Assembly (NCBI GenBank): GCA_963665115.1
Contig: OY762007.1
Coordinates: 5,056,001 to 5,120,000, forward strand
Direction of reading: 5' to 3'
DNA: 64,000 nucleotides
Origin: an uncultured Rivularia sp.
GTDB taxonomy: Bacteria; Cyanobacteriota; Cyanobacteriia; Cyanobacteriales; Nostocaceae
The first letter of the stretch is position 1; each line of letters starts with the position of its first letter. The translations under genes were made by a program, and so were the position numbers. This document shows, in pieces, positions 29,709-55,251 of the stretch. The notes beneath the pieces are model-generated. The model ran no database searches and was not told the origin of the DNA. It saw only the letters and a program-made list of their open reading frames with translations.

Positions 29709-29978
29709 ATGCTAATTGTAGGATTGCTCGCTGCAACTTTAACTACCACTGCTTTTTTGCCGCAGATGATCAAAACCTGGCAATCTAAGTCAGCGAATGA
29801 TGTTTCTTACGCCATGTTAATTACATTTATTATTGGTGTTTTTTTATGGTTGATATACGGAATTCTGAATCAGGATATCCCGGTTATTTTGGCTAATGCT
29901 TTTACTTTACTTTTTAACCTGGCAATTCTTTATCTTAAAATTAAATATGAAAAAACTCCCCAAACAAAACGCCTGTGA
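29709..29978 (+). CDS. SemiSWEET (PQ-loop) sugar transporter
   Basis: TTTAFLPQMIKTW..KSANDVS; WLIYGI...PVILAN; three TM helices. Confidence 0.9.
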   Translation: MLIVGLLAATLTTTAFLPQMIKTWQSKSANDVSYAMLITFIIGVFLWLIYGILNQDIPVILANAFTLLFNLAILYLKIKYEKTPQTKRL

Positions 29979-31610
29979 CATCCGATTTATTTGCTAAGGA
30001 ACGCCTTTTATTTACTCCCGCGACTCCCGATACCGATGCTATTCCCGTTATTTTTGCTTTTCCCAATGAATACACTGTGGGAATTACTAGCTTGGGTTAT
30101 CAGGTGGTGTGGGCTACTTTGGCGATGCGTGCGGATTTACAGGTGAGTCGCTTGTTTACCGATATCAGCGAAACTCTGCCCCGAAACCCGGAAATATTAG
30201 GTTTTTCGATGTCGTGGGAGTTGGATTATGTCAATATTATGAATTTGTTGGAATCTTTGGATATTCCGATTAGAGGGAGCGATCGCCAAAATAATCATCC
30301 TATAGTTTTTGGTGGTGGCCCCGGTTTTAACGGCTAATCCCGAACCTTATGCTGATTTTTTCGATGTGGTTTTGCTCGGAGATGGCGAAAATCTGTTAAA
30401 TGATTTTATTAATGCTTATAAAGAAGTTAGAAACGCGGATAGGGAAACCAAGTTAAAAGCACTTGCACAAGTACCGGGAATTTACGTACCTAGTTTGTAT
30501 GAAGTTGAGTATTTTAGTTTAGATGGTGCGATCAAATCTATCAAACCAATTTCATCAGATATTCCCGCAGAAGTACACAAGCAAACTTATCGTGGAAACA
30601 CTTTATCGGCATCTACGGTAGTAACAGAAAAAGCGGCTTGGGAAAACATTTTCATGGTGGAAGTAGTCAGAAGCTGTCCGGAAATGTGTCGTTTTTGTTT
30701 GGCAAGTTATCTCACTTTACCTTTTAGAACTGCCAGTTTAAATGATTCATTGATTCCGGCAATTGAAAGAGGTTTACAAGTAACAAATCGTTTGGGATTA
30801 TTAGGCGCTTCGGTAACTCAGCATCCCGAATTTGAGACTTTATTAGAATATATAAATCAGCCAAAATACGAAGATGTACGTTTAAGTATCGCTTCAGTGA
30901 GAACCAATACGGTGACAGAAGAATTAGCTAAAACATTGGCTCAAAGAGGAACTAAATCCTTGACAATTGCCGTGGAAAGTGGTTCGGAAAAAGTTAGAAA
31001 AATTATTAATAAAAAGCTTGAGCAAGAAGATATAATCAAAGCCGCAGAAAATGCTAAAAAAGGCGGATTGAAAGGTTTAAAACTTTATGGAATGGTAGGA
31101 ATTCCGGGTGAAACAGCAGAGGATTTAGATGCAACTGTAACGATGATGCAGAATCTTAAAAAAGCTGCTCCGGGATTGCGGCTTACTTTAGGATGCAGTA
31201 CTTTTGTACCCAAAGCCCATACACCTTTTCAATGGTTTGGAGTGAATAAAGAAGCAGAAAAACGATTGAAATTATTGCAGAAAAAGTTAAAGCCCCAAGG
31301 AATAGATTTTCGTCCGGAAAGCTACAACTGGTCGATAATTCAAACGCTGTTGTCAAGGGGAGATAGAAGATTATCCCGACTTTTGCAACTAACCCGCAAC
31401 TTTGGCGATTCTTTAGGTAGCTACAAACGTGCTTTCAAAGAACTAAAAGGACAAATTCCCCCCTTAGACTTTTACGTTTACGAAAATTGGTCAACCGAGC
31501 AAATATTACCTTGGAATCACTTGCAAGGACCGCTACCGCAATCTACACTGCAAAAGCATCTGAATGAAGCAGTTACCAGTTACCAGTTACCAGTTACCAG
31601 TTACCAGTAA
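29975..31610 (+). CDS. B12-binding-like radical SAM protein (extra C in run at 30319-30322)
   Basis: FPNEYTVGITSLG, GGGPVLTANPEP after correction, CPEMCRFC, FVPKAHTPFQW; joins ORFs 29975..30337 and 30309..31610. Confidence 0.88.
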
Positions 31611-37263: not shown

Positions 37264-37430
37264 ATACTCCCTACTCCCTACTCCCTACTCTCTACTCTCT
37301 ACTTTCTACTCCCCACTCCCAACTCCCTACTTTCTACTCCCCACTCCCAACTCCCCACTCCCCACTCCCTACTTGCTACTTGCTACTTGCTACTCTCTAC
37401 TTTCTACTCCCTACTCCCCACTCCCCATAT
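37264..37430. repeat. STRR heptamer tandem array (CTCCCTA/CTCCCCA/CTTGCTA variants)
   Basis: More than 20 degenerate 7-mers. Confidence 0.9.
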
Positions 37431-37639: not shown

Positions 37640-40600
37640 GTGTCTACAGCCTCTCAAAGCCGCATGGAATTAAAAGTTGCCTATAAAAACATTTTAATAC
37701 GAGTACTTAGGTGGGTAAATCTTCGACCGGAAGAGGCTCCTCGAACATTACTGATGTTTGCTTTTTACGCCACAACCTCAGTTGGATTGAGATGGGTAGA
37801 AGATAGCAGTATCGCTTTATTTCTGGATAAATACGGAGCTGAGACTCTACCGTGGATTTACATTGCTAGCGCAGTCGTTGGAATTGCGTTAGTTTTCCTC
37901 TACTCTTGGCTGCAAAAGATTTTTCCTATGCGATGGGTAATTGTAGCTGCTTTACCCTGCATGGTAATACCATTAATTTTACTGCCTGTAATTCTGCAAA
38001 TTACTTTGTCTACGAATTTACAAGCTTCACAGTTAGCTTTATTTAGCGTATTTTTATTAAGGCTTTGGGTTGATGCCCTTTACGTTATCAATCAGATCAA
38101 TACTTCTATTGCAGCAAATCAGTTATTTAACATCCAGGAGATTAAGCGTACTTATCCTTTGGTAAGCAGTGGAGTTTTAGTTGCGGATGTAATTGGGGGC
38201 TTTAGCTTACCAACTTTAGTCAGATTTCTCAAGTTGGATAAAATCATTTTGATTGGGGCTTTAGTTATTGTCTTAGGTACGTCCATTCTTTTGCATTTAA
38301 GCAAAAAATATCCTCAAGCTTTTTCGGATATTACGCAACGACAAATTAATAAATCGCAAGTTTCCCGCGCTCGTCGTCTCTCCAGCCCTTTAAGACGTTA
38401 TGCATTCCGATTATTTTTATTTGGGCTTTTGATACAGGCAATAGGTTTGTTAGTAGATTTTCAGTATCTATCTCAATTAGAATCCACTTTTCAAGGTAAA
38501 GAAATTACTAGCTTCTTAGGGTTATTTGGTGGAACCTTGGGGCTGTTTGAACTTGCAACGCAGTTATTTGTCTCTAGTCGTGCGATCGAACGTTTGGGAG
38601 TATTTTTTACTACTGCAATTTTGCCTGTTGGCGTAGGTGCTTTATTAATAGTGCTGGCAGTATTATCTTCCTTATCAATGACTTCAGCCTTTTTTGGTTG
38701 GAAAATACCTATATCGCTGCTGTGGGGTTTAACGCTGATTAAGTTTCTAGATGAACTTGTGCGTTATACCTTCGTAGCCAATACAGGTACTTTGTTGTTT
38801 CAACCGATACCTGAAAAAGTTAGAAGTCGCGTACAAACATTATCGGGAGGCTTTGCCGAAGCCGCTGCTGCGGGTCTTGCAGGATTTATTATTTTAGTTA
38901 CCCAATGGATTTCAACTCATTTTATATCCGTAGATTGGCAAAACTTAGTCCTAATTATAGAAACCGCAATAGTTGCCATTATATGCGTAGGAGTAATTTG
39001 GGTATTGCGATCGCAGTACGTGGATCTATTAGTTTTAAGCGCAGATAGTGGACAGTTAAGCGTTACAAATATTGATTTACCTTTCTTTAAACGGGCTGTA
39101 ATTAAGGCTTTACGAGAAAAAGGAAATGAGGCTGATAAACATTCTTGCATAGAACTTTTATCGCAGATCGATCCCCAAGGAGCAGGAGAAGTATTAGCGC
39201 CACAATTACCAATGCTTACTCCTGCTTTGCAGCATAAAAGTTTGCAAGTGATGCTTGAATATGATGTAAATCCGACTTATTTGCCTCAAATACGGAATTT
39301 ATTAGAAAACTCTCTTTCCAAAGCCAATCCGAATATATTTGCTTTAGCACTACGTTACGTTTTCCTTGCAGAACTTTCTCCAAATTCAGATCGACTAGAA
39401 GTATATTTAGATCCCGAACAAAATCCTGTGATTCGAGGTACAGCTGCGGCATTATTATTAACTCAAGGGACAACAAAGCAAAAAGTTGCCGCAACCAAAA
39501 CTCTCCAATGGATGCTGACTAATGAAGAAGAAGAAATACGAGCTTTGGGAGTTAAATCTTTAACGGAAGCAGCTTACTTACAATCTCTAAGGATTTATAT
39601 TCCTTCATTATTGGAGGATGAATCTTTAAGGGTACGCAGCGCAGTTCTAGAAATGATTGCTGCAAACCATTTAGAAGAGCATTATTCAGCATTAATAAAA
39701 GGGCTTCACTATAAATCCACCCGGTTAGTAGTAATGAAAAGCTTAGTAAAACTGGGGAATGAAGTTTTACCAATGCTGTCAAACTTAGTACACGATTTTT
39801 ACGAACCGGAAATAGCGCGAGTATATGCTTTGCGAACAATGAGTCAAATTGAGACTTTAGAAGCAAGTGATACCTTGTGGCATCATTTGGAAACATCTAG
39901 GGGTAAAATCAAATCCCATATACTCCGTGTTTTACTCAAAAGACATCAGCAACATGGAATATCTGCTTTGGTAGATAGATCCTATGAAACCAGAGTGCAA
40001 GCATTAATAGAAGGAGAATTAATATTATTAAGCCAGATATACGCTGCCTCCGTAGACTTTAAATCTCAAGGTGAAGTATACGCAGCTTATATAGAATTTA
40101 AAACGGGAGAAACCATGCAAAACTTTCACTCTAAAAAAAAGGTTGTAGCTTTATGTAGGCTGGTTCAAAAAGCTATTTCAGAACTAGAAATTGATATCAA
40201 AGAACGGTTATTTTTGCTTTTAAAATTGCTTTATCCCTTAGACAAAATTAATGCAGCAGCATTTAACCTCAATTCCGAATCGCAAGTAACTGTAGCAAGA
40301 GGCTTAGAGATTCTAGAGCATACGATCAACTTACCTTCCAAAAATATTTTACTGAGTATTTTTGATAAAAGACCACCCACCGAAAAACTGCAAAAACTTG
40401 TAGAAGCGGGATATACGCAATACGAACAAATGGCAGTAAACGACCGAACTCGAAAATTACTAGAATTAGAAAATTCGCTTTCTGACTGGTGCTGGGCTTG
40501 CTGCATTCACTTTGCCCAAGTTGCTCGTATTAAACTTAAAGCCGTACAAATTGAAGGAAGCTTGCGTCATCCTTGTGGTTTCGTTAGAGAAGCAGCCGTT

Positions 40601-40726
40601 GCATATTTAAGTATTGCATCCCCTCGTTTATTTATAAAAGTTATACCCCAGTTAAAAAAAGATTCGCATCCTCTTGTAATAGCTCAGGTTAATGAATTTA
40701 TCGAAAAATATAAAATTGATAAATAG
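37640..40726 (+). CDS. NTT/TLC-like (Npt1-like MFS) transporter fused to HEAT repeats
   Basis: About 12 hydrophobic segments, ANQLFNIQEIKRTYPLV, LLFQPIPEKVRSR; helical HEAT-like C-terminal half. Confidence 0.8.
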   Translation: MSTASQSRMELKVAYKNILIRVLRWVNLRPEEAPRTLLMFAFYATTSVGLRWVEDSSIALFLDKYGAETLPWIYIASAVVGIALVFLYSWLQKIFPMRWVIVAALPCMVIPLILLPVILQITLSTNLQASQLALFSVFLLRLWVDALYVINQINTSIAANQLFNIQEIKRTYPLVSSGVLVADVIGGFSLPTLVRFLKLDKIILIGALVIVLGTSILLHLSKKYPQAFSDITQRQINKSQVSRARRLSSPLRRYAFRLFLFGLLIQAIGLLVDFQYLSQLESTFQGKEITSFLGLFGGTLGLFELATQLFVSSRAIERLGVFFTTAILPVGVGALLIVLAVLSSLSMTSAFFGWKIPISLLWGLTLIKFLDELVRYTFVANTGTLLFQPIPEKVRSRVQTLSGGFAEAAAAGLAGFIILVTQWISTHFISVDWQNLVLIIETAIVAIICVGVIWVLRSQYVDLLVLSADSGQLSVTNIDLPFFKRAVIKALREKGNEADKHSCIELLSQIDPQGAGEVLAPQLPMLTPALQHKSLQVMLEYDVNPTYLPQIRNLLENSLSKANPNIFALALRYVFLAELSPNSDRLEVYLDPEQNPVIRGTAAALLLTQGTTKQKVAATKTLQWMLTNEEEEIRALGVKSLTEAAYLQSLRIYIPSLLEDESLRVRSAVLEMIAANHLEEHYSALIKGLHYKSTRLVVMKSLVKLGNEVLPMLSNLVHDFYEPEIARVYALRTMSQIETLEASDTLWHHLETSRGKIKSHILRVLLKRHQQHGISALVDRSYETRVQALIEGELILLSQIYAASVDFKSQGEVYAAYIEFKTGETMQNFHSKKKVVALCRLVQKAISELEIDIKERLFLLLKLLYPLDKINAAAFNLNSESQVTVARGLEILEHTINLPSKNILLSIFDKRPPTEKLQKLVEAGYTQYEQMAVNDRTRKLLELENSLSDWCWACCIHFAQVARIKLKAVQIEGSLRHPCGFVREAAVAYLSIASPRLFIKVIPQLKKDSHPLVIAQVNEFIEKYKIDK

Positions 40727-40777
40727 TGGTTAGTGGATAGTTGTTAGTGTTTATTTGTTAAATATATAAAAAATAAA

Positions 40778-41175
40778 ATGGAAAAGTCTAATTTTGAAAA
40801 TTTGAAAGTTTTTCAGTTGTCTGAGCAATTAGCCGACCAAATTTGGAATATTGTTATATTTTGGAATCATTTAGCAACAGATACTGTTGGAAAACAAATT
40901 ATTCGTTCTGCCGATAGTATTGGTGCGAATATTGCAGAAGGTAGCGGCCGCTATATTTTCAAGATAATCTACGATTTGTCAAAATTGCTAGAGCTTCTTC
41001 GCATGAAACAAGATATTGGCTAAGAAGGGCATATGTTCGTAAATTATTAACAAGCCAACAGATTGATACTATTAAGCCTATTGTTGATGAACTATTACCA
41101 AAATTAAATGCCTATTTCAAATATCTAGAAAAAGCAGCAAAACAAGAAAAATCTAAAAAAACAACTATCAACTAA
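40778..41175 (+). CDS. Four-helix-bundle protein (23S rRNA IVS protein / Avd-like family), one base missing near 40955
   Basis: FENLKVFQLS, KQIIRSADSIGANIAEGSGRY; after correction RFVKIARASSHETRYWL...KLNAYFK; stop at 41173-41175. Confidence 0.85.
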
Positions 41176-41192
41176 CAACTAACACTAAATTT

Positions 41193-41624
41193 ATGTTAAC
41201 CAGTGTCGATCGTTTATTATTTGTACGTCAAGTTCCGATATTTAAGGAATTACGGGATGATTTTATTGTTCGATTAGCTTCTGCGATGAATGAACTGTGG
41301 TTTCCACCAAATTGCAGTATTTTTCGACAGGGAGAACAAGGACAATCTCTGTATATTGTTGTTTCGGGAAAAGTCAAAATTCATTTAAATAACAGAACGC
41401 TTACTGTTATTCCGCAAGGAAAATATTTTGGTGAAATGGCGGTATTTGATACTCAACCGCGTTCGGCTTCCGCCACTACAATAGATGCTTGTGAATGTTT
41501 GGAATTAACTCAAGAACAACTTGATAATGCTATTGAAGAAACTCCTGAAATTGCAGTCAATATAATTCGCGAACTATCTCGGATAATTCGTAAGTTGAAT
41601 AATGATGGTAGTGGGATGCGGTAA
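41193..41624 (+). CDS. Stand-alone cyclic-nucleotide-binding domain protein
   Basis: IFRQGEQGQSLYIVVSGKV, YFGEMA, PRSASA. Confidence 0.9.
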   Translation: MLTSVDRLLFVRQVPIFKELRDDFIVRLASAMNELWFPPNCSIFRQGEQGQSLYIVVSGKVKIHLNNRTLTVIPQGKYFGEMAVFDTQPRSASATTIDACECLELTQEQLDNAIEETPEIAVNIIRELSRIIRKLNNDGSGMR

Positions 41625-43555: not shown

Positions 43556-44937
43556 CTAACTTTTCTTTGCTAATTTAATCAATTGCACTGTAACTCCTAA
43601 ACTTTCTTCAAAAAGCGCTTCTTTACCCCAACGCTGTACTTGTTGAGAAAGCAAAACTTCGGCTTTTTGCTCGGAAAGTGAAGTTATTTGTTGAAATACG
43701 CCAGCAGATTGGGCACCACCGTGTGTTTCCATTCGCATACAGCCGCCGGTTTCGGAACAAATTAAGGTGCCGCAGTTTGCTTCTGGATTGGTGGAACTTA
43801 AACGTATGGCAATCAAATCGCCGGGAATATCGCCGACATCGGCTACTGGGGGACTCCTGCGATTTCGGTTTCTATTTCCCGTTGATCCGAAGCCATGAAC
43901 TTAAAACGTCTAATATTGTAATCGCCAAGTTCTTGTTCGTAGGAAACTGCACGCCATTTCAAGCGACTTGCTAACCAACCCAAAAATAGTAATGCTTGGG
44001 TAGGATTGCCTTTTTCGTGGTCGATATTTACTCTATCAACTTCAGTTAAAGCTTTGCGTCTGGCTGGTGCGTCGTAAGCTTCTGCTGTTAATTCTTGCCA
44101 TCCTCCTACACGTCGCCAGTTTAAATCTGCTAGCGGTATGCCATTTTCTATCAAAGATTGCAAACTGAGTAAATCGTTTTCTGGTTCGTTAAAGTTGCAA
44201 GAATCAACAATAACGTTATCGCATACGGTTGAAAGTCTCTTGAATAAAACGTTGTTTGGATCTGGTGTTGCTTTCCACCAAATAAACTTGGGTAAACCAC
44301 CTATTAATAATTCTGGAATCATGCCACCAATACGTTCTAAGGCTGTGGCAGTTCCGGTTAAAGTGATGTATTCGCAACAAACCAGCGAAGATGATGATTG
44401 TTTTTGAATCGGACAATAAGCTGATACTTGCGCCTTAACGCCTTCATCTTCACCAACGGTGGGTATCAAACTAATAATGCGACAGGGGTTACGCAAAGCG
44501 ATTTCGTCAGCAATTCTAGCGCTGGCTCCATCTGGGCTGTACTCGGAGGCACTAGCACCGTTGTTATCAGTAGTGTTACCACCACCATGAAGTTTTGCAA
44601 GTTCTTCCCGCAGTCTGGCTAAAACTTGCGGACTCGTTTTACCAGTTCGTTCCAAACCAAGGGCTTTTTGTGCATCTCTGAGCGCGGATACGGTTTGCGG
44701 CCCCAGAATACCATCAATTGGGCCGCTGTAAAATCCCAAAGCAGCCAACAAATACTGAGTTTGTTCTGGCTCGTAAACCACCAAAGTAAACGTAGTAGCT
44801 CGGGTAGCCGCAGGAAGCGCTCCATCTTCCCCGCCAATACCGTAACTTTGCCAAATTTTACTTAGTTCGGCTTCAATTTCGTTGAGCGAAATATCTTTGG
44901 GAGCCTGAAGTGAAAAAAGAGTGGGTGCTTGAGTCAT
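43556..44937 (-). CDS. opcA: G6PDH assembly protein OpcA (indel in G5 run at 43848-43852)
   Basis: ATRATTFTLVVYEP, VSAYCPI, CCEYITL, DLNWRR, CGTLICSETGGCMRM; directly downstream of zwf. Confidence 0.93.
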
Positions 44938-51837: not shown

Positions 51838-54800
51838 TTACATTGGTTTTTCTTCGGGCATCATGCACTTGTCAGAATCGCATCCCGATGGCCCCGCTTC
51901 CATTAATTCTCCGAAATCATAACGTTTCAATGCATTATGAAAATCGCTGGTATCGCGGCGGTTTTCTACTTGTTCCATTAACTCATCGTATTCCTGTTTG
52001 CTGATGGGTTCAAATGGTAAACGAGGAAAGGTTTGATGGTCGTCAAATCTTGCCAAAAGTGCGGCGCTGATGTAGCCTTCATCATTTTGAATTGCTTGGT
52101 ATATGCGATTTCCTAACTCTTCAACTTCGTTTTCTCGTACTTCAATAGTCGCTGAAGTATTATGAGTCACGTAGAATTGCTGCACCTGCATATAAAAATC
52201 CATTTGCGCTAAAGCATTAAATTGATCGATGGCAATTTGATCGGCACCAGGTACATCTGCCCAAGGTACGGCAACGGGAATTTCAACTAACCATTCGGTA
52301 CAGCGAGAATCGAACGGATCGTTTAACAAGTTGCCGTTTTCGTCTTTATCAGTTTGAGAAGGAACCACCGCATAACCGTAATCAATACAAGCCAAAGCTA
52401 CCGGATCGTTTTTGCGGAAAGTTATCCGACGAATAAACCTTTGAGCTTTGGGTGGATGCCATCCTGGAGAAGCACCAGTCAGTAAAGATTTAGTACCGCT
52501 TGGTTGCACCGTAGTACAGCGATTTGGACGCTTGATATTATGGCGATCGCAATATTCCCAAACTACCCGATGTACGATATCTTTCCACCTACTTAGATAT
52601 TCTTGTTCGCGGCGTTTAAAGGCTAAACCTTGCTTGGTTTCAGGTCTTCCTTCCGTCCACCAGTGCAACCAATCAACCCCAAAAGCATGAACGAAAAAGT
52701 CGAATAAGCCAGTAAAAGATACACCCACAATCGGATCTAACTCGCGGCTGTATTGGTAACGAGGTTCCAAGAATTTATGATTCAACAACGCAGCTACAGA
52801 TAAAGCACCAGCAGTGAAAGCTTGTTCTTGTTCTTGATAATTTTCGGGGTCAATTTGATTTAAGTGGATTTCACTAAGGTTACAGTGAAAATTACTACCC
52901 AAAATTTCTCCGCAGTTGTGAGTTATACAACCGTTCGCAATAAAAGAATGAGTTAAGGGAACATGAAGGTCGTAAACAGGCTCTTCTCCATATTCTTCAA
53001 CATTATTAACCTGAGCGGTAAACCTGGAATTAATAGTTAGGGCTGTGTAGTTTGGTAGAGGTTTAGCATTCCATTCTTCTAATCTTTGTTCTTTAAGTGG
53101 TGATAGCGGAAAACCAATCATTTGATGAAATAGTTTGTAGCTCAAAGACTGAACACAAAGAGAATAAGAACCATTATCCGCACTAACTTTTTGAACACCA
53201 TCAGCAGTGGTGTAAACAACTCCTCTATAACCTTTCCTTCTGCCGCAACGAAGCGTACTTAGTATTCCCAGTTGAAGTAAAATGAGTTGGATTTGTTGTA
53301 ATAAATCTTTAGATTTATTCACTAACTTAATACGACGGCAGTCTTTTTCGACGGTACCATCAGCACTAAAAAGACCTTGAATAAATCCAATCAAAACTTC
53401 CTTTGATTGATTTAGAAAGTTAACTGGGAGTATGTCTTTGCTTTCAATTTCTAAGTCGCTAAAAAATTTCTCTAGTAAAGGAGATTGAGTTCTAAACTCA
53501 TATACTCCTTTGTGAAGCTTTCTAGCATATTCAACACCAGTAATAGATTTGATGGCTTTACCCACTACAGGATAAGCATAATCATATTCTTGTTGATTGA
53601 AAACAAAACCTTTTGCAAAATGAGATTCTTTTCTACCATGTTTGTGTGGTTTGATAATAACATTATAGCCATCTCCATACCACCAACCAAGCATTTGTGC
53701 TTGCTCAACTGTGATAGTACCTTCACCAAAAAATCCTTCTCCTTTCTGAATATAAATATTATGTTCAGAAGTCAAATGCGAGGTTGCGACCCATCCTTTA
53801 TTCGTAAAGTGCTGATGGTCAGCAGTACATCTCATTTGCTGTCCATTTTTTAGTGTGACAATATATGTAGTTTGTACACCTGTAGAAAATGCTATTGCAT
53901 CAGTTAACTTAACCCCATCTAATCCTATGGAACGTAAATCAACTAAAGCTTTAAATGGCTTACCAACTAAATCTTTAATTGCTACTAATCCTCTGTTGGT
54001 AGATACTAATGTGTCACCTGAATGACACGGGTTTAAACCAAACCTATTCAAGCGATGCTCAATTTCATTTTGATCGAGATAAGAATATTTTTTCTTTAAC
54101 CAATCAGCGCCCTTACCTTGTTGATAAGCCTGTAAAAAATCAGTTTTCAATTCCTTGGTTGTTAACAAATCAAGGTTTGCTCTAGCAACAGCTTCACCAG
54201 CCCATTGAATTGCACCTTCACCACTGTAATATTGCTTGCGAACGGCATTAACACATTCTTCTAAAGTAGGTTTTTGGTGAAATACCCTGGTATGATTCGA
54301 CATTCTCAGCGCATCTCTTTCGGGATCGATCCGCCAATTCCCATCTTCACCTTGCTGCCATAAATTAGCTTTTGCGTCTGCAAATGCAGTGTCTTCGCTG
54401 ACACCTTGCCTCATCCCGGCCGATCGACGGATATTTCCGGCCACAATTGTTACAGCCGCTTCATCAATCAACAAACAGCATTCCACCGAAGTTAATTTTC
54501 TGCCAACAGCTTTATTAAGAATTGCAGCACAGCGATGATAAAGTTCGGGTAACTTCACCGGATTCGCCATACCACCGAAACCTTGCAACGGTTCGCCAGC
54601 TTTACGAATATCACTGATATCAACAGTTACTTCGACTTCTTGACTCAAACGTTCGTCAGTAGATAATTCTAAAAGACTTTTATAGGACTGTACCCAACCT
54701 TGACGGCTATCTCCAACATAAATAGTCGCTCGATTACCTTCAATTTTAGTTTCTGTAAATTCACGGCGCTCGTTAGCTATAGTTTTACCAATATCGCCTT

Positions 54801-55251
54801 CTACTGTCACCTTTAAACCATTGCGGATACTAGGTAACTGATTAATATATTTGGGTTCTAAAATTGCTCCCGTACCGCAGCCCATCATCGCCAAATCCAT
54901 CATTAACCCGAAAGCACTCCAGTCAATGACGTTTGTCGAAGTACAGTTATAAGCACCCGAAAAATTCTTCGGCTGAGTCAGCCAATTTGTACCACCCACC
55001 CACAACCATCTTCCACTCGGTAAAGCCTTGAGATTGCGCTGCATTCCTTCCAAAAGTACAGCTTCATCTTGAGTAAGCTTACCTAACTCAACCAAACCTT
55101 TTAGAGTGCGATCGCAAACCTGACTCCAGGATTCTCTCGTCCCTTCCGACTGTTGACGACGGCTGTAAGTCCTGAAAAATACAGGATTTGCAGCAGGGGC
55201 TGTTTGAGGAAAGTCTGCACCTTGGTGTTTCCGTTCAAGCTCTCGAACCAT
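51838..55251 (-). CDS. nrdJ: Adenosylcobalamin-dependent ribonucleotide reductase (class II) containing an intein
   Basis: PSGRWLW, AYNCTS, VAGNIRRSA, GLNP/[intein]/CGEI, TTVQPSGTKS, C-terminal GCDSDKC. Confidence 0.95.
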   Translation of the reverse strand: MVRELERKHQGADFPQTAPAANPVFFRTYSRRQQSEGTRESWSQVCDRTLKGLVELGKLTQDEAVLLEGMQRNLKALPSGRWLWVGGTNWLTQPKNFSGAYNCTSTNVIDWSAFGLMMDLAMMGCGTGAILEPKYINQLPSIRNGLKVTVEGDIGKTIANERREFTETKIEGNRATIYVGDSRQGWVQSYKSLLELSTDERLSQEVEVTVDISDIRKAGEPLQGFGGMANPVKLPELYHRCAAILNKAVGRKLTSVECCLLIDEAAVTIVAGNIRRSAGMRQGVSEDTAFADAKANLWQQGEDGNWRIDPERDALRMSNHTRVFHQKPTLEECVNAVRKQYYSGEGAIQWAGEAVARANLDLLTTKELKTDFLQAYQQGKGADWLKKKYSYLDQNEIEHRLNRFGLNPCHSGDTLVSTNRGLVAIKDLVGKPFKALVDLRSIGLDGVKLTDAIAFSTGVQTTYIVTLKNGQQMRCTADHQHFTNKGWVATSHLTSEHNIYIQKGEGFFGEGTITVEQAQMLGWWYGDGYNVIIKPHKHGRKESHFAKGFVFNQQEYDYAYPVVGKAIKSITGVEYARKLHKGVYEFRTQSPLLEKFFSDLEIESKDILPVNFLNQSKEVLIGFIQGLFSADGTVEKDCRRIKLVNKSKDLLQQIQLILLQLGILSTLRCGRRKGYRGVVYTTADGVQKVSADNGSYSLCVQSLSYKLFHQMIGFPLSPLKEQRLEEWNAKPLPNYTALTINSRFTAQVNNVEEYGEEPVYDLHVPLTHSFIANGCITHNCGEILGSNFHCNLSEIHLNQIDPENYQEQEQAFTAGALSVAALLNHKFLEPRYQYSRELDPIVGVSFTGLFDFFVHAFGVDWLHWWTEGRPETKQGLAFKRREQEYLSRWKDIVHRVVWEYCDRHNIKRPNRCTTVQPSGTKSLLTGASPGWHPPKAQRFIRRITFRKNDPVALACIDYGYAVVPSQTDKDENGNLLNDPFDSRCTEWLVEIPVAVPWADVPGADQIAIDQFNALAQMDFYMQVQQFYVTHNTSATIEVRENEVEELGNRIYQAIQNDEGYISAALLARFDDHQTFPRLPFEPISKQEYDELMEQVENRRDTSDFHNALKRYDFGELMEAGPSGCDSDKCMMPEEKPM
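52915..54027 (-). mobile_element. Intein (371 aa) with LAGLIDADG homing endonuclease
   Basis: Block A CHSGDTLV, block B CTADHQH, C LGWWYGDG, E FIQGLFSADG, F/G VYDLHV...FIANGCITHN followed by Cys+1. Confidence 0.95.

Follow-up and report, generated by a model that had tools for sequence, protein, structure and literature searches.

A decayed four-helix-bundle gene between inverted heptamer arrays in Rivularia suggests possible transposase-free mobile cassettes

The window analyzed here (the whole 64,000-nucleotide stretch of DNA from an uncultured Rivularia sp.) carries, between two genes of an operon, a four-helix-bundle gene bounded by inverted arrays of heptamers, and this copy is a decayed cassette, a pseudogene. 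The reading that we put forward, and in which belief and doubt weigh about equally, is that such an element is a DNA cassette in which inverted heptamer arrays enclose a gene. The cassette would be gained at junctions between genes, would flip and be lost, and its protein, a ring by prediction, would likely bind the repeat unit of its own arms. The value of this particular site lies in the view that it gives of the cassette life cycle: intact, broken and reduced to a bare hairpin.

The upstream host gene (37640..40726, + strand) encodes a 1028-aa protein with a membrane N-terminal part, recognized by eye, followed by HEAT repeats (PF13646, HEAT_2), and the downstream host gene (41193..41624, +) encodes a 143-aa protein with a cyclic-nucleotide-binding (cNMP) domain (PF00027). 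A sequence-only reading of this DNA had called these neighbors NTT-HEAT and cNMP; the HEAT and cNMP assignments stand, but the NTT label was not returned, Pfam giving only HEAT_2. The same reading had the left arm beginning exactly at the upstream stop codon and the right arm ending a few nucleotides before the downstream ATG, and both placements proved accurate: the left arm (40724..40749, +; about four G/T-rich heptamers) opens with the upstream stop TAG (40724-26) as its first three bases, and the right arm (41161..41187, +; about four C/A-rich heptamers) ends 5 nt before the ATG at 41193. The right arm is not the exact reverse complement that had been described, as in the best register (40724-44/41161-81, ending 11 nt before the ATG) 19 of 21 bases pair, with two G-A mismatches. 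The 7-mer copy number is 4.3 in each arm (TRF), and a repeat finder reports an inverted pair of 44 nt, 73% complementary, at the arms. Predicted pairing does loop out the insert as had been proposed: the arms close the loop in the minimum-free-energy (MFE) fold of 40700-41210 (z -2.51; 1 of 100 shuffles equally good), and the MFE and centroid folds both place the upstream stop at the foot of a stem with 20 pairs and 2 mismatches. Between the left arm and the cargo ATG lies an AT-rich leader (40750..40777, +) without a sigma-70-like promoter on the + strand; the scan for promoters (sigma-70-like consensus) and terminators gave no promoter on that strand and no terminator. The sole ORF in the element is the PF05635 gene, and there is no transposase gene. 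Upstream of the HEAT gene, 23 copies of TACTCCC at window positions 37265-37425 form a separate heptamer array, which is the longest in the window.

The cargo gene starts in the family frame (codons 1-59, 40778..40954, +), which covers helices 1-2 and the GxxRxxxSxxxNxxE motif, and meets a one-base frameshift site (40955..40959, +) relative to intact orthologs, after which the ORF continues out of frame and meets a stop at 41023; the remainder of the gene, with helices 3-4, lies in another frame (40960..41175, +) and ends in a TAA (41173-75) inside the right arm. Both halves pass the family cut-offs, with 46.3 and 34.9 bits vs 33.8 for PF05635 and 40.7 and 36.8 vs 24 for TIGR02436. The ORF 40778-41023 encodes 81 aa, only the first 59 of them in the family frame, and falls short of the approximately 120 aa expected of an intact family gene; relatives have one extra base near 40955. 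The sequence-only reading had overlooked the break after codon 59. No indel was present at the frameshift in four of four read sets: X1-X3 may be the source DNA itself, and X4 is a diverged strain that has 19 substitutions and a 7-nt arm insertion and carries the same break, so that the window copy is a true pseudogene and assembly error could be ruled out as the source of the frameshift. Programmed frameshifting was judged unlikely, because the relatives are simply in frame and the canonical slippery heptamer pattern is absent by eye.

A model of the intact ortholog L004 has four helices (pLDDT 90) and matches XCC0516 (2GSC) with an rmsd of 1.1 A and Avd (4DWL, 8UB7) with a TM of 0.69-0.70 at 14% identity. 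The relation to the S23p/IVP family and to Avd that had been put forward for this gene is supported by the fold, which matches both the S23p/IVP pentamers and Avd. The closer structures are XCC0516 (2GSC) and BT_0352 (2RLD), each with five chains, from which we infer that the cassette protein would form a ring-shaped pentamer. PF05635 proteins have solved structures, yet no assigned function.

The family is clearly enriched for inverted flanks over background, as the sequence-only reading requires. Each ORF was scored by how well the 220 nt flanking it on one side match, in inverted orientation, the 220 nt on the other; a best score of at least 16 was reached at 10 of the 11 PF05635 loci of this genome (the eleventh is a fragment) vs 115 of the 6,623 crude ORF calls of the same genome that formed the background set (1.7%). 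With a score of exactly 16 the window copy ranks lowest among the ten armed loci, which use differing 7-9-base units. Across the genus, where 135 loci were analyzed out of 172 matches tallied, 111 of the 129 loci with full flanks reach 16; for the subfamily of the window protein in five phyla, 54 of 77 do so vs 0 of 150 shifted controls. This family-wide enrichment supports the earlier suggestion that the insert is the gene-bearing form of inverted heptamer pairs. Inverted repeats other than heptamers flank small genes at G000:C1:5820510, 2059700, 4654828 and 378903, and these genes are presumably one DUF559-like and three RAYT-like, judging by eye.

Several sites elsewhere in the genus bear marks of gain and inversion. 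At L036/L037 and L059, cassettes occupy junctions that measure just 3 and 7 nt in this genome, and at the two clean junctions, L037 and L059, approximately 4-11 host bases are replaced and no target duplication was seen. At one MCP-cheA junction, 12 loci carry one family protein and 3 another that is unrelated to it, and the arm type differs with the protein. The loop is found in both orientations, with the outer junctions unchanged, at all five sites inspected (preselected because the neighbor survey suggested inversion), and the flipped and unflipped proteins are 83-99% identical; recombination between the arms would be the simplest source of the two orientations. The 105 loci with both neighbors assigned, a non-independent set because it includes orthologs, divide into 56 that are sense to co-directional hosts, 24 that are antisense, 18 between convergent and 7 between divergent genes.

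The proteins are conserved in sense, antisense and convergent settings alike: at six further sites, one of which has a single neighbor assigned, dN/dS is 0.07-0.25. The value is 0.107 at an antisense site and 0.069 and 0.111 between convergent genes. That a fixed site should stay under purifying selection for so long is explained by a benefit to the host at least as well as by selfishness. The subfamily of the window protein was not found in viral contigs and a plasmid search gave one distant match, so that no vehicle is evident. Two other cassettes lie in unusual neighborhoods: one (G000:C1:1706457-1706828) is just upstream of a cas2-like gene and approximately 1.5 kb from a reverse transcriptase (RT) match (1708351-1708971), a setting that resembles an RT-linked CRISPR adaptation module (cas names by eye), and the other (G000:C1:1719330-1719686) interrupts a helicase gene, which we take from its motifs to be RecD2-like. 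The protein of the latter is 98% identical in three further genomes of the genus (L079, L102 and L122), two of which have different neighbors, and this identity across neighbors suggests that it may have spread recently inside a larger mobile region.

Each protein subfamily tends to keep its own repeat unit. At 60% identity the genus proteins separate into 13 clusters that differ in arm profile, and arm likeness across sites is higher within a cluster than between clusters (mean cosine 0.30 vs 0.11; 529 and 5,209 pairs). Five non-cyanobacterial genomes, chosen because they hold cluster 0, supplied 13 cassettes with proteins at least 55% identical to a genus protein, and in 7 of these the nearest cluster also had the best-ranked arm profile (null 2.3, p<0.001). 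Without the identity cut this was so in 8 of 23, the cognate match being weaker at low identity. A two-way test on dereplicated loci outside the genus set found the own profile closer in 40 of 43 cluster-0 and 36 of 39 cluster-2 loci, and cluster 0 was ranked first of all 13 by only 20 of the 43 cluster-0 arms. Synonymous divergence between sites is such (dS 1.1-2.0) that neutral co-inheritance should have blurred the unit, and we infer that the cassette protein probably reads its own repeat. This match of subfamily to unit names a candidate reader of heptamer repeats and permits a swap between two subfamilies. Cluster 2 has arms built of a TAACTGA-type unit; by eye, the cluster-2 and cluster-0 units differ mainly at position 6 (A vs G), and the arm units of L251-L330 and L146-L220 have a shared frame, often with A at position 2 and T at position 4. 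An intact paralog with the arm unit of the window copy is present in this genome at C1:2047554.

The history of the window site can be followed in 23 genus loci that have both flanking genes: the gene is present in 15 (9 intact, 6 broken) and absent in 8, and the additional filled loci L013 and L088 appear to be broken as well. Filled loci are spread over the genus tree with the empty ones nested among them, the gene tree recovers host sister pairs, and all six loci from other families have neither the gene nor matched arms. The 9 intact copies have a dN/dS of 0.095 and a dS of 0.585 (vs 0.65 and 0.51 in the flanking genes). Because the outgroup families lack the gene, gain is placed before loss: the cassette appears to have entered this site once, early, near the base of the genus, to have been kept under selection and to be undergoing loss at the tips. 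The empty sites that had been anticipated in relatives do exist, but not as signs of a recent insertion, the cassette looking ancestral to the genus and on its way out. In each of the 17 filled copies the gene points the same way as the operon, and given this count orientation may matter at this site. Empty site L021 keeps both arms as a perfect bare hairpin (z -5.7), and four other empty sites in distant branches (L010, L012, L018 and L024) have a different right arm and a related spacer, whose sharing hints at allele exchange. Homing-like transfer of the site's gene between lineages, an idea prompted by L023, was not upheld (AU p 0.152). Several intact orthologs have weak arms or an arm on one side only (L004, L007 and L008, with scores of 8-15), and secondary palindromic inserts are present in the gene or right arm of L002, L005, L006, L008, L009 and L017.

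If these elements are indeed DNA cassettes, recombination between the arms in DNA would flip the loop, keep the arms alike and, when it results in deletion, leave a gene-less hairpin. The predicted pentamer, like XCC0516 and Avd, would read the repeated bases of the cognate heptamer in single-stranded RNA or DNA, and such reading would preserve the unit well beyond the point at which synonymous sites have diverged. Binding may in turn serve the spread or persistence of the cassette via a putative host enzyme, which is invoked because the cassette encodes no transposase. At the window site, there would have been a single entry between the HEAT stop and the cNMP start near the base of the genus, with the frameshift coming later; the stem in the operon mRNA may form as a by-product. 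A wider proposal, which we offer tentatively and which is probably too generous as it stands, is that these are undescribed transposase-free mobile cassettes with each subfamily reading its own unit, rRNA intervening sequences (IVS) being copies that came to lie in 23S rRNA, Avd of diversity-generating retroelements a recruited member, and the dispersed heptamer arrays, which number thousands across cyanobacteria and other phyla, gene-less progeny or binding targets. If the protein also mobilizes its own cassette, there would be gene mobility without a transposase, and a protein that reads its own repeat would join two long-unexplained things: the function of this family and the heptamer repeats.

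The genome holds 3,738 arrays of 7-9-mers, with G-rich runs favoring positions after stops (1021 vs 214) and C-rich runs positions before starts (395 vs 96). This G-after-stop, C-before-start polarity has been published for GGGAATC and GGGGA(C/T)T in a paper whose accessible text describes these heptamer repeats as generally not associated with mobile elements (PMC4692102), and stop/start polarity of repeats is also reported in the accessible text of PMC4679880. As far as their accessible texts go, the latter paper and 10.1101/2022.06.06.494920 both propose an unidentified repeat-binding regulator, and it is to that protein that they leave the origin and reader of bacterial heptamer repeats. 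The four-helix-bundle protein could be such a host regulator, binding arrays beside starts and stops genome-wide and tuning the adjacent genes, with its own arms autoregulatory and its turnover that of an ordinary accessory gene; we consider this unlikely, if worth serious attention. It would sit well with these published proposals, with the polarity of the 3,738 arrays, with purifying selection at fixed sites and with the persistence of the intact paralog at C1:2047554 and its matching arm unit, but it leaves unexplained the need for two inverted arms at nearly every copy, and at this site 14 of 23 relatives have a broken gene or none. The distribution of gene and repeats cuts both ways: across 121 genomes from the phylum, matching repeats are present in every one of the 11 that have a cluster-0 gene (E<=1e-36), but 26 of the 37 genomes with the cluster-0-type repeat pattern (a broad pattern, in kin that are non-independent) are without a cluster-0 gene at that cut-off, as are 11 of the 21 with at least 50 pattern matches, so the gene is not needed to keep the repeats. 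The arrays also constrain the DNA-cassette reading, as only 207 of 670 close G-to-C array pairs share a unit and 463 are unlike, from which it follows that most arrays are not simply cassette remnants.

The sequence-only reading had itself favored an mRNA-level intervening sequence. Here the arms would pair in the operon transcript, and an RNase III cut, or coupling of the two host genes through the loop-out, would make the insert neutral; we now regard this as rather improbable. Its attraction lies in the predicted stem (20 pairs, 2 mismatches) that rises from the upstream stop, in the 17 of 17 filled copies at this site that are co-directional, and in the 23S helix 45 IVS of Coxiella burnetii, which according to the accessible text of PMC4990558 has a 28-bp stem that RNase III cleaves in vitro, a PF05635/TIGR02436 gene looped out by a terminal inverted repeat, heptamers in strain-variable number upstream of the ATG, and an ORF prone to decay. 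A terminal inverted repeat stem of the IVS type is likewise found in the window cassette, as a prediction. Unlike the 23S rRNA IVS, however, the window cassette lies between protein-coding genes and not in rRNA, and other cassette copies invert and work antisense, with intact proteins under purifying selection. As many as 24 of 80 loci with co-directional hosts are antisense and 25 more lie between convergent or divergent genes, and the protein remains conserved when antisense (0.107) or between convergent genes (0.069, 0.111). Selection for pairing in mRNA should show as an excess of G-U among the arm mismatches on the host strand, but no excess was found either in the cassettes (56 vs 69, p 0.28) or in 118 gene-less hairpins (114 vs 124, p 0.56); since the test is noisy for degenerate repeats, this is an absent signal and not a disproof. 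The intact orthologs with weak or one-sided arms (L004, L007 and L008) also fit this reading poorly, and a cut in mRNA without ligation would separate the host genes and not join them. Excision from mRNA is unsupported, and a cut in this operon mRNA may nevertheless occur, given the Coxiella stem and the 17 sense copies. Read joints that skip 410-416 nt were considered as excisions and rejected: two of the three stem from gene-less hairpins at other places in the genome (C1:7884670 and 8491845), and the third is confined to strain X4.

It is very improbable that the genes are passive cargo, small genes that fall between ubiquitous G-rich and C-rich arrays and whose arm type is merely co-inherited, for although the polarity is genome-wide and published (in the accessible text of PMC4692102) and approximately 105 other ORFs of this genome also have inverted flanks, matched arms occur at 10 of 11 family loci vs 1.7% of ORFs, the unit is kept across phyla and at a cross-site dS above 1, and at the MCP-cheA junction each protein type brings its own arm type.

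The window cassette is neither a diversity-generating retroelement (DGR) nor an insertion sequence (IS) nor an rRNA IVS. Avd, which is described in the accessible text of 10.1101/2023.10.23.563531 as a pentamer that binds an RNA stem-loop at equivalent protomer sites, with bases flipped between protomers, has the same four-helix fold; unlike in a DGR, however, no reverse transcriptase gene accompanies the window gene, whose neighbors are the HEAT and cNMP genes, and none of the genome's 7 RT matches lies in the window. IS elements and MITEs differ in that the window element has no transposase gene. REP/REPIN sequences with their RAYT genes likewise place a gene between inverted repeats whose gene-less copies are scattered through the genome, but the cassette differs in having a cargo without a transposase fold or HUH motif and arms that are tandem 7-9-mers and not palindromes. 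Dispersed heptamers of cyanobacteria and others, among them the STRR repeats, resemble the arms. GGGGA(C/T)T and GGGAATC (PMC4692102) and TAACTGA (PMC4679880) share with the arms their unit length, stop/start position, strand and occurrence in inverted pairs, and the accessible texts of these two papers draw no link to four-helix-bundle genes. Family genes have been placed between cas genes in PMC3936711, whose accessible text does not mention arms, and PF05635 ORFs within CPR rRNA insertions (10.1101/2024.02.27.582315, accessible text). The literature covered, mostly open-access main texts, held no link of family genes to inverted heptamer arms outside rRNA, and the armed cassette class is apparently undescribed in print.

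Other genes of the window also look interrupted. A ribonucleotide reductase-like ORF at 51838-55251 (-) has, by eye, an apparent intein with a Cys start, a His-Asn-Cys end and a LAGLIDADG-like middle. Two further genes look split into two ORFs each: a presumed radical SAM gene at 29975-31610 (+; near 30320) and a presumed opcA-like gene at 43556-44937 (-; near 43830).
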